From Escherichia coli (GTDB taxonomy: Bacteria > Pseudomonadota > Gammaproteobacteria > Enterobacterales > Enterobacteriaceae): a stretch of DNA of 19,170 bases. The stretch is taken from assembly GCF_003334255.1 (NCBI RefSeq), contig NZ_QOWU01000071.1; one strand, written 5' to 3'. Position numbers and translations under genes: made by a program. Under the pieces are notes generated by a model. It searched no databases, had not been told where the DNA came from, and was given only the letters and a program-made list of their open reading frames with translations. Below, piece after piece: positions 8,899 to 11,553 of the stretch (its first letter is position 1; each line of letters starts with the position of its first letter).

Positions 8899-9546
8899 AT
8901 GAGTACAACAAAAAACAGATATCCTTCCTGGTGGGCATATTATTACCTTGTTCGCAATGCGTATTTCATATTTGGCATACCATGCTTATTATTTTATGCT
9001 TTTTTCGGAACACTAATTGTTCATGATTCAGCCTTATCTCAAACAATGGATTTTGTTTTTGCATATGGATGCTGGGCATTAATAATTATCCCATTACTCT
9101 GGCTATATCTGAGAACCAGAGCGAAGAAAAAGAAAGTCCTGCAGGTTGTTCAGCAGATAAAAGAAAGCAGTCTCTTTGCGCCGACCAGCGATTATGAGCA
9201 ACTGTCATTCTCGAAGAGTTGTTATTTCGGGATCGACATTAAAAACGGCACCATGCTGTATGTGCGTATTTATCCAAACAATGTGATGGATGTGATTGGT
9301 CTGGATATTCACAACTTTACCCGCACGGTTGCTGAGGACGGCAAACTGGAAATCCATACCACCTATGTGAGTCTTCCGATGATCCCACTGGAAATCTCCG
9401 GCATCTCATCAAGGACGCTGGCCAACACCATGCACACCATGGCTGCACGTGGATATGAGTACAAGGAACGTTTCCCGCAGATGATCCGGTATCGGGTTAA
9501 AGAGTGGGAAAAAGTTGCCGGTGTACCTGTTGCAGAAGTGTTTTAA
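8899..9546 (+). CDS. Hypothetical membrane-anchored protein (215 aa); AT-rich
   Basis: GGAGG 8 nt upstream of ATG; two N-terminal hydrophobic helices then a soluble domain; last 35 codons duplicated downstream. Confidence 0.6.
   Translation: MSTTKNRYPSWWAYYYLVRNAYFIFGIPCLLFYAFFGTLIVHDSALSQTMDFVFAYGCWALIIIPLLWLYLRTRAKKKKVLQVVQQIKESSLFAPTSDYEQLSFSKSCYFGIDIKNGTMLYVRIYPNNVMDVIGLDIHNFTRTVAEDGKLEIHTTYVSLPMIPLEISGISSRTLANTMHTMAARGYEYKERFPQMIRYRVKEWEKVAGVPVAEVF
9433..9546 (+). repeat. Direct repeat copy 1 (3' end of the 215-aa gene)
   Basis: About 110 bp near-identical to 9938-10051. Confidence 0.8.
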
Positions 9547-9562
9547 GACGGTTATCTCATAC

Positions 9563-9614: not shown

Positions 9615-9824
9615 TTATCGATAAAGTCGCCCAAGAGCCTTGATAGCTGCAACTTTAATTTCCATATCATCACTTTCACTTAATCTACGTAATTCCCTCT
9701 TTATGTTATCTGCCTGGCATCGACCTTCACCTAATGCATAGATCACAGCAAGTGTAACGTCTTTTGATTTATCCTTCATCATTTCAAACAAGAAAGTATT
9801 AGCTATCGCAGGAGACATACTCAT
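9615..9824 (-). CDS. Small hypothetical protein (69 aa), AT-rich, helical-repeat-like
   Basis: Strong RBS (AGAGGA, 8-nt spacer); sequence ...AAIKALGRLYR resembles a single HEAT/PBS-type repeat, tentative. Confidence 0.5.
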   Translation of the reverse strand: MSMSPAIANTFLFEMMKDKSKDVTLAVIYALGEGRCQADNIKRELRRLSESDDMEIKVAAIKALGRLYR

Positions 9825-9937
9825 AATAATTTCCTCTTTATAAAATTAACAAAGATACTCATTTAGATGTATAAACATCTGTATAATAAAATAACTCTTG
9901 CTAAACAAGAAATTAAAATCTTGCATCCACAGTCTCG

Positions 9938-10051
9938 CACACCATGGCGGCACGCGGATATGAGTACAAGGAACGTTTCCCGCAGATGATCCGGTATCGG
10001 GTTAAAGAGTGGGAAAAAGTTGCCGGTGTTCCTGTTGCAGAAGTATTTTGA
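9938..10051 (+). repeat. Direct repeat copy 2 (orphan copy of the gene 3' end)
   Basis: Differs from copy 1 at four positions plus the stop codon (TAA vs TGA); all four fall on third codon positions and are synonymous. Confidence 0.8.
9944..10051 (+). CDS. Orphan 35-codon ORF identical in protein sequence to the C-terminus of the 215-aa protein
   Basis: ATG-initiated MAARGYEYKERFPQMIRYRVKEWEKVAGVPVAEVF; no obvious Shine-Dalgarno, so expression is uncertain. Confidence 0.3.
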   Translation: MAARGYEYKERFPQMIRYRVKEWEKVAGVPVAEVF

Positions 10052-10083
10052 GGTAGCTATCAACTGTTAGACGATAATCCGTC

Positions 10084-10114
10084 AGCCGGTTTTCTCTGAA
10101 CCGGCTTTTTCTTT
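10084..10114 (+). terminator. Intrinsic terminator after the orphan module
   Basis: AGCCGGTT-TTCTCTG-AACCGGCT followed by a T-run. Confidence 0.5.
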
Positions 10115-10166
10115 TCAGGCAGAATGCCTGTCTGCCGTCCCTGTATCAGACTGTAATTTGCACAAT

Positions 10167-10181
10167 ACGGCAATTTGCCGT
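10167..10181. promoter_or_regulatory. Perfect 15-bp palindrome ACGGCAATTTGCCGT; candidate antitoxin operator
   Basis: Located 26 bp upstream of the antitoxin start codon, in the promoter region. Confidence 0.45.
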
Positions 10182-10206
10182 ACAGTGTATTCAGGAGGTA
10201 CAAATC

Positions 10207-10488
10207 ATGCCATCTGCAACACAAACTGCCCGACTGGAAGCAAGAATCAGCACAGAACTGCATGCTATGCTGAAACGCGCTGCAGAAATCCAGGGACGCA
10301 CTATGACCGATTTTATCATTTCTGCCGTTCAGGATGCGGCACAACGCGCTATAGAACAAACCGATATCATCCGACTGTCCCGGACAGATCAGGAAATTTT
10401 TGCTCAGGCATTACTGTCACCAACAGAACCTAATGATGCGCTCAAACGGGCCTTTAAACGCCGTAATAATATTCTATACACAAAATAA
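10207..10488 (+). CDS. DUF1778-type (ribbon-helix-helix) antitoxin of a GNAT toxin
   Basis: 93 aa; AGGAGG RBS; ...LEARISTELHAMLKRAAEIQGRTMTDFIISAV... is typical of TacA/KacA-type antitoxins; immediately upstream of the GNAT gene. Confidence 0.85.
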   Translation: MPSATQTARLEARISTELHAMLKRAAEIQGRTMTDFIISAVQDAAQRAIEQTDIIRLSRTDQEIFAQALLSPTEPNDALKRAFKRRNNILYTK

Positions 10489-10493
10489 ATATA

Positions 10494-10982
10494 ATGTTTC
10501 AGCTGAAACCATTTAACAGCACATATGACAGAACCTCATTTTTATGTGGTTCTGATGCTCTGGACCGTTATATAAAAGAGCATGTCACACAGGATATTCG
10601 ACGACGCATCGCGGCCTGCTTTGTTGCTATAGATAACGATCATCGTATCATCGGATACTATACGTTATCAGCGGCCAGTATATTATTAACTGACTTACCT
10701 GAGCATTTGAGAAAAAAGCTACCACGATATCCTACCATCCCGGCTATTCGTATGGGACGCCTGGCAGTAAGTCTGTCATCAAAAGGAACAGGACTTGGTG
10801 GGACACTTTTAGCTGATGCGCTATATCGTGCATACACATCTGAAATTGCAGCATATGCGCTGATTGTTGATGCAAAAGATGACACGGCAGTCTCATTTTA
10901 CAAACATTATGGATTTATGACGCTCCCGGAGTCAGGGCGAACTTTATTCATGCCACTGGCATCATTATCTGCAATAGAATAA
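10494..10982 (+). CDS. GNAT-family acetyltransferase toxin (TacT/KacT/AtaT-type)
   Basis: 162 aa acetyltransferase fold (…RMGRLAVSLSSKGTGLGGTLLADAL…FYKHYGFM…), 5 bp after the antitoxin stop. Confidence 0.85.
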   Translation: MFQLKPFNSTYDRTSFLCGSDALDRYIKEHVTQDIRRRIAACFVAIDNDHRIIGYYTLSAASILLTDLPEHLRKKLPRYPTIPAIRMGRLAVSLSSKGTGLGGTLLADALYRAYTSEIAAYALIVDAKDDTAVSFYKHYGFMTLPESGRTLFMPLASLSAIE

Positions 10983-11553
10983 CCAGAATAAATCCGGGTA
11001 AAAAAGGGCGCATTGAGGTCAGCCTTCGCAACAATCCGGCGGCAGATTCCCTGCCGCCGTGTTGCCCGTTAACGTTTAACTTCGTAGGCTAACGTTGCCA
11101 CAAGCACCGTATTTCCCTGCTCGATACGAAATCCGCAAAGCGAATCCCTCACCATCCAGACAAAACACAGTATCGTCACACAGAGGACAATTAACATTGT
11201 TAAAAACGTTCGTTGTAGCATCGCAGCCCCTCCATTGCCTTTCGGCCGTTATCGGGCTACTATAATGTTGTCTAGGCATTACAGTAGAGCCCTGGGTTGA
11301 TTGATAAAAAAATCGCCTGGGGCTTCTGCTACATGCCGTCCACAAAACGCTTTCGGCATACAGCCTCAAGCGCCCGCAGCTATTCTAATCGTTTTTCAGT
11401 CTGCCACAATCGTTTTCCATCTAATGACATGTAATGCGCAACGGTATTTTTACGGGAAACAACACGGCAAGGATTCCCGGAACACGTCCATTATTTTATG
11501 GTTACGGACATCATGTTAAATCAGAAAGTAATAATGACCTGAAAGGAAATGGT

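Follow-up and report, generated by a model that had tools for sequence, protein, structure and literature searches.

Among the toxin-antitoxin modules that pair a DUF1778 antitoxin with a GNAT acetyltransferase toxin, the operator has been defined for kacAT of Klebsiella pneumoniae by the crystal structure of a KacA4KacT2-DNA complex (5ZGN), which Qian et al. 2019 (PMC6698736) solved with the 27-bp duplex AAATGTACGGTTATTAACCGTACATGA. KacA makes its base contacts around GTACGG, with R12 reading G5, D10 reading C8, R8 reading G9 and G20, and D10' reading C18, and replacement of either arginine (R8A or R12A) abolishes DNA binding (PMC6698736). In one KacAT heterohexamer the two antitoxin dimers occupy both arms of the palindrome, which is reported to span the transcription start (PMC6698736). 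For ataRT, an AtaT-AtaR4-AtaT heterohexamer on a palindromic operator is described in the accounts of Jurenas et al. 2019 given in PMC6698736 and PMC8138530, and derepression that depends on the ratio of toxin to antitoxin has been described for both KacAT and AtaRT (PMC6698736, PMC8138530). For tacAT of Salmonella enterica, the stretch from -81 to -6 was inferred to hold two binding sites, and the antitoxin did not bind by itself (VanDrisse et al. 2017, PMC5449658).

The kind of element considered here, and the mechanism of autoregulation that goes with it, are already established; what is new is a member, well supported by computation, from an uncharacterised branch of the family, carried on a plasmid of Escherichia coli. 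Among the papers searched, none gave its operator sequence or an account of the plasmid module.

The plasmid module and its palindrome

The window (the whole stretch of E. coli DNA that was analysed, 19,170 nucleotides) includes a region that matches I-complex conjugative plasmids of E. coli, typed as IncK2/Z, with 100% identity. There the module has the surface-exclusion gene excA on one side and, on the other, a convergent Hok/Gef (pnd-like) killer gene (Table 1). An earlier note, made from the letters alone, had taken the module for a DUF1778/GNAT toxin-antitoxin operon of a well-known family, and both statements are borne out by the Pfam matches of the two proteins and by their relationship to TacAT, AtaRT and KacAT. 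The closest solved relatives of the toxin are AtaT (E 3.4e-22), TacT (E 1.6e-21) and KacT (E 7e-21), and those of the antitoxin in the PDB are KacA, AtaR and TacA (E 3e-9 to 2e-3), KacA being matched only distantly at E 4.7e-9. Identity to the ataRT proteins is low, at 29% for the antitoxin against AtaR and 32% for the toxin against AtaT. A search of NCBIfam returned sub-threshold matches only.

The antitoxin has an N-terminal ribbon-helix-helix domain, with the β-strand T7-ARLEARIS-15, and a C-terminal toxin-binding part. Within the FY..GF motif of the toxin, Y136 aligns with Y144 of AtaT, a tyrosine that we take to be the catalytic residue. Toxins of the TacAT, AtaRT and KacAT kind acetylate aminoacyl-tRNA and halt growth, an effect that their antitoxins counteract. 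The antitoxin gene precedes the toxin gene, as it does in kacAT and ataRT, and a 5-nt gap separates the two in the window. This junction (10486-10496) reads TAA-ATATA-ATG, so that the toxin start stands separate from the antitoxin stop, and the toxin is about five codons shorter at its N-terminus; in nearly all of the related loci (L004-L044) the antitoxin stop overlaps the toxin start as ATGA, which suggests translational coupling in those loci.

Table 1. Positions of the module, its putative control elements and neighbouring features in the window
Feature	Position	Strand	Basis or remark
69-aa ORF	9615-9824	-	annotated as HEAT-repeat protein in identical plasmids; within the segment bracketed by the excA repeat
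-35-like hexamer TTGCAC	10158-10163	+	inferred from family TTGAnn: T 71/79, T 57/79, G 68/79
Extended imperfect 27-bp inverted repeat	10161-10187		11/13 pairs; same length as the duplex crystallised with KacA4KacT2
Candidate operator core, containing the reported 15-bp palindrome	10166-10182		family conservation; match to the kacAT and ataRT core
-10-like hexamer TACAGT	10181-10186	+	family TA(T/C)nAT: A 78/79, final T 76/79
Shine-Dalgarno AGGAGG of the antitoxin gene	10193-10198	+	conserved in family, 6 nt after the -10-like hexamer
Antitoxin gene, 93 aa	10207-10488	+	Pfam TacA1/DUF1778 PF08681, E 2.2e-27, residues 9-86
GNAT acetyltransferase toxin gene, 162 aa	10494-10982	+	Pfam GNAT domains; AtaT/TacT/KacT relatives
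Hok/Gef-family (pndA-like) killer gene	11069-11221	-	convergent to the toxin gene
sok-type antisense RNA	11219-11375	-	Rfam match, 116 bits

Read directly, positions 10167-10181 are ACGGCAATTTGCCGT, with 7-nt arms around a central T. The perfect 15-bp palindrome that had been claimed here is therefore confirmed, perfect meaning, at an odd length, that the arms match around that T, and the claimed distance of 26 bp to the antitoxin ATG is also correct (an offset of 26 from the palindrome end, with 25 nt in between). One further pair on each side extends the palindrome to TACGGCAATTTGCCGTA, that is, TACGGCAA-T-TTGCCGTA with 8-nt arms, and around this lies an imperfect inverted repeat of 27 bp. 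The window holds four palindromes with 8-nt arms separated by 0-1 nt, where a first-order Markov simulation of its 19 kb predicts 0.65; one such palindrome somewhere in the window is unremarkable, and is weak evidence by itself. The prior for finding one in the 60 nt or so ahead of a ribbon-helix-helix gene is about 0.002.

Other repeats and partial matches were also considered. The direct repeat formed by ACTGTAATTTGC (10150-10161) and ACGGCAATTTGC (10167-10178), 17 nt apart, was rejected as a second operator, its upstream copy being without the CGG/CCG bases and unconserved in the family; that copy could be a weak auxiliary site or a product of chance. Within it, ACTGTA (10150-10155) is the reverse complement of the -10-like hexamer. 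Positions 1573-1589, within a 1015-aa ORF, read TACGGTTACCAACCGTG and match TACGG-N7-CCGTA with one mismatch; this near-match was set aside, since 0.28 such matches are expected per window, which is the level of chance. A perfect 14-bp palindrome, GTTTCAGCTGAAAC at 10496-10509, starts with the last base (the third) of the toxin ATG; this palindrome is unconserved in related loci and probably has no meaning.

Conservation of the motif and layout of the predicted promoter

Homologues of the antitoxin number more than 2,700, most of them in Betaproteobacteria, and are rare on E. coli I-complex plasmids. One large branch is made up of 93-aa antitoxins that are 70-80% identical, and in 33 aligned homologues the β-strand TARLEARIS is invariant. 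From this branch, 80 loci were taken from different species belonging to many genera, mostly Betaproteobacteria with some Pseudomonas. All 80 have a GNAT homologue (55-66% identity) directly downstream of the antitoxin gene, in genomic contexts that are otherwise unrelated. The upstream regions of 78 of them, together with the window, were aligned on the palindrome (n = 79). In this alignment TACGGC-N5-GCCGTA is exact in 70 of the 79 loci and is found with at most two mismatches in every one, while CGGC and GCC are invariant throughout. Information content is 1.5-2.0 bits per position in the arms and about 0.1 bit in the flank upstream of them, the five central bases occur in 28 variants, and the motif stands at a nearly constant distance from the start codon. 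The 242,512 bases of related loci hold 71 exact matches to the motif, a single one per locus and each at the promoter; the window has one. The outer pairs of the 27-bp repeat are variable among the 79 loci, so only the core is under constraint.

No TACGG palindrome was found within 120 nt upstream at L086, a KacA-like locus on an E. coli IncFIB plasmid, or at L087 from Pandoraea, where the promoters may have been rearranged. The β-strands at both loci keep the same arginines; L087, a more distant relative, has the R-x-E-x-R strand of the window antitoxin.

Counting from the first base of TACGGC, the same alignment shows conserved TTGA at -8 to -5 and conserved TA(T/C)nAT at +15 to +20, and the two hexamers are 17 nt apart. 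The -10-like hexamer matches TATAAT at four or more of its six positions in 73 loci. From this family consensus we infer a promoter for the window module, in which the palindrome fills the 17-nt spacer and its right arm overlaps the first two bases of the -10-like hexamer; transcription would start at about 10193. A generic promoter scan of the window did not call a promoter upstream of the antitoxin gene, because TTGCAC matches TTGACA at only three of six positions; taken together, the two hexamers agree with the sigma-70 consensus at 7 of 12. The base to the left of the palindrome is G in 63 of the 79 loci, whereas the mirror position on the right, which is the third base of the -10-like hexamer, is T in 53 and C in only 21. 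This asymmetry suggests that operator and promoter constraints overlap at that base.

The operator reading and competing explanations

The palindrome is very probably the operator of the antitoxin-toxin promoter. The autoregulatory role that the earlier note had proposed is supported by comparison along three independent lines: the conserved footprint, the position in the spacer of a putative sigma-70-like promoter, and the identity of the core to both the KacA-KacT operator and the palindrome upstream of ataR. When the kacAT duplex and the 27-mer of the window, CACAATACGGCAATTTGCCGTACAGTG, are aligned position for position, both show TACGG-N7-CCGTA at identical spacing with an A/T-rich centre. 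Both loci have a 27-bp inverted repeat ahead of an antitoxin gene followed by a GNAT toxin gene; the kacAT site overlaps the core promoter, and that of the window would overlap the predicted one. Like KacA, the window antitoxin is a ribbon-helix-helix protein with arginines at both guanine-contacting positions: R9, E11 and R13 align without gaps with R8, D10 and R12 of KacA (R9-L-E11-A-R13 against R8-I-D10-L-R12). The two systems also differ. The window strand has E11 where KacA has D10 (R-x-E-x-R against R-x-D-x-R), the base after GG is C/G in the window (TACGGC...GCCGTA) and T/A in kacAT, and the kacAT palindrome is reported to span the transcription start, whereas that of the window would lie between the -35 and the -10.

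In the native ataRT promoter, taken from the chromosome of E. coli O157:H7, the palindrome ATGTACGGTGACATACCGTACAT lies 27 nt before the ATG of ataR. It shares the core TACGG-N7-CCGTA and its spacing with the window, and the two modules also agree in gene order and protein folds; they differ in the central seven bases of the palindrome and in their setting, ataRT being chromosomal and the window module borne on an I-complex conjugative plasmid. The core TACGG-N7-CCGTA, and with it the putative recognition code, is kept between antitoxins that are only about 30% identical. TacAT belongs to the DUF1778/GNAT modules as well, and its toxin-antitoxin complex binds the tacAT promoter, with two inferred sites where the window has a single conserved palindrome.

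A further point of comparison is provided by GmvA-like DUF1778 antitoxins. On a Klebsiella plasmid (L085), such an operon has the same layout as the window module, with palindromes of similar size directly upstream: GTATAGCA-TT-TGCTATAC and GTATATCA-AT-TGCTATAC, at 356-373 and 393-410 of that locus. An upstream scan of a GmvA-like locus on a Shigella plasmid (L084) found no such pair of palindromes. The GmvA-like β-strand is Q-x-N-x-R, as against R-x-E-x-R in the window, and this difference and that between the palindromes suggest a half-site specificity other than that of the window branch. Different palindromes at GmvA-like loci are what would be expected if the strand residues set the half-site, and in this family a simple code may link strand to half-site.

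If the module behaves like KacAT and AtaRT, the antitoxin would dimerise through its ribbon-helix-helix domain, and the paired β-strands, with R9, E11 and R13, would enter the major groove at one TACGG half-site. A toxin-antitoxin2-antitoxin2-toxin heterohexamer would then set its two dimers on TACGG and CCGTA, half-sites that lie 12 bp apart from start to start with the A/T-rich centre between them. With the operator filling the spacer between the -35 and the -10 and overlapping the latter, the bound complex would be expected to exclude RNA polymerase and so repress the operon; loss of antitoxin, or an excess of toxin, would release the complex and allow the antitoxin to be expressed again. 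For the window module, binding, stoichiometry and ratio-dependent derepression are carried over from the described relatives, and stoichiometry and site number may differ between branches of the family, because TacAT has two sites and an antitoxin that does not bind alone. The established picture of how such modules regulate themselves is unchanged. What the comparison adds is a predicted promoter architecture for a large uncharacterised branch of the DUF1778/GNAT family, and a palindrome that is now a well-supported candidate operator.

Three other explanations of the palindrome were weighed. Sigma-70 spacers are normally unconserved in sequence, TACGGC and GCCGTA resemble no promoter element, and the motif accompanies the antitoxin gene in many genera and contexts and matches operators bound by homologous antitoxins. 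These observations make it very unlikely that the palindrome is bound by a different protein (a host or plasmid regulator, for instance) or is a promoter-spacer element unrelated to the antitoxin, even though the site overlaps the putative core promoter, so that promoter function could explain part of the conservation.

Action at the RNA level, through a stem-loop that would affect stability or translation and would lie in the antitoxin mRNA's 5' leader or in a transcript reading through from excA, is very unlikely. A fold of 10155-10215 does form a hairpin over the palindrome (-18.9 kcal/mol, z = -3.5 against shuffles), but any perfect palindrome folds well, so the energy is uninformative. 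The hairpin explanation was rejected on the lack of covariation and on the position of the site: the arms are invariant and show no compensatory changes, which fits base read-out by a protein and not pairing, and the palindrome lies between the conserved -35-like and -10-like hexamers, upstream of the predicted transcription start. It is also separated from excA by a terminator-like hairpin with a T-run (10084-10106), and the same core is the crystallographically defined DNA operator in KacAT. The probability that the palindrome arose by chance or is a leftover excA terminator is close to nil, despite the count of four such palindromes where 0.65 were expected, because all 79 of the 79 loci conserve the motif at the same position, with its distance to the start codon fixed, which refutes a chance origin, and because no T-run follows the palindrome and excA already has the terminator-like site just described.

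Plasmid remnants and the chromosomal relative

With the palindrome read as the operator, the plasmid module can be set beside its chromosomal relative, an ataRT-like locus carried by roughly 30% of complete E. coli genomes. Cross-regulation, in which the plasmid module and chromosomal ataRT would act on each other's promoters, is conceivable because the contacted core TACGG-N7-CCGTA and the arginines are common to AtaR, though the proteins are only about 30% identical; it seems unlikely. If it did occur, entry or loss of the plasmid would alter the expression of a chromosomal toxin linked to persistence, and vice versa, and specificity would have to come from the C or T that adjoins GG and from the centre of the palindrome. 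The shared code raises the question of how, in a cell with paralogous modules, transcriptional cross-talk is avoided or put to use.

The promoter region of the window module is found in 145 plasmid records. The whole module is present in only nine of these, and about 136 have a deletion remnant. The deletion removes 704 bp (10293-10996), which takes away the entire toxin gene and the larger part of the antitoxin gene, and has the microhomology AAATCC at its edges; the promoter and 29 codons are left, giving a remnant ORF of 53 aa directly next to the convergent Hok/Gef gene. Five remnants were sampled, and window positions 10159, 10182, 10187 and 10197 were compared with loci L002, L003, L089-L091 and L093. 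All five have a T-to-A change at 10159, which turns TTG of the -35-like hexamer into TAG (TTGCAC to TAGCAC), and an A-to-T change at 10182, which turns the -10-like TACAGT into TTCAGT. Some remnants have in addition a G-to-A change at 10197 in the Shine-Dalgarno sequence (AGGAGG to AGGAAG), a C-to-A change in the putative operator, or an IS66-family insertion through the left arm. In an intact copy that is 98% identical (L092), the -35-like hexamer, the putative operator, the -10-like hexamer and the Shine-Dalgarno sequence are unchanged. The pattern of mutation in the remnants fits the promoter assignment, with the reservation that the shared changes are probably single ancestral events and the statistics are weak, and it suggests silencing of a promoter that had been orphaned and left without repression while facing the pnd locus.

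Where the module is intact, the toxin-antitoxin genes and the Hok/Gef gene place two post-segregational killing systems tail to tail. On the other side of the module, a 125-nt direct repeat of the 3' end of excA, 93% identical between its copies (9432-9556 and 9937-10061), brackets a segment of about 500 bp, and looks like the scar of an excA allele replacement.
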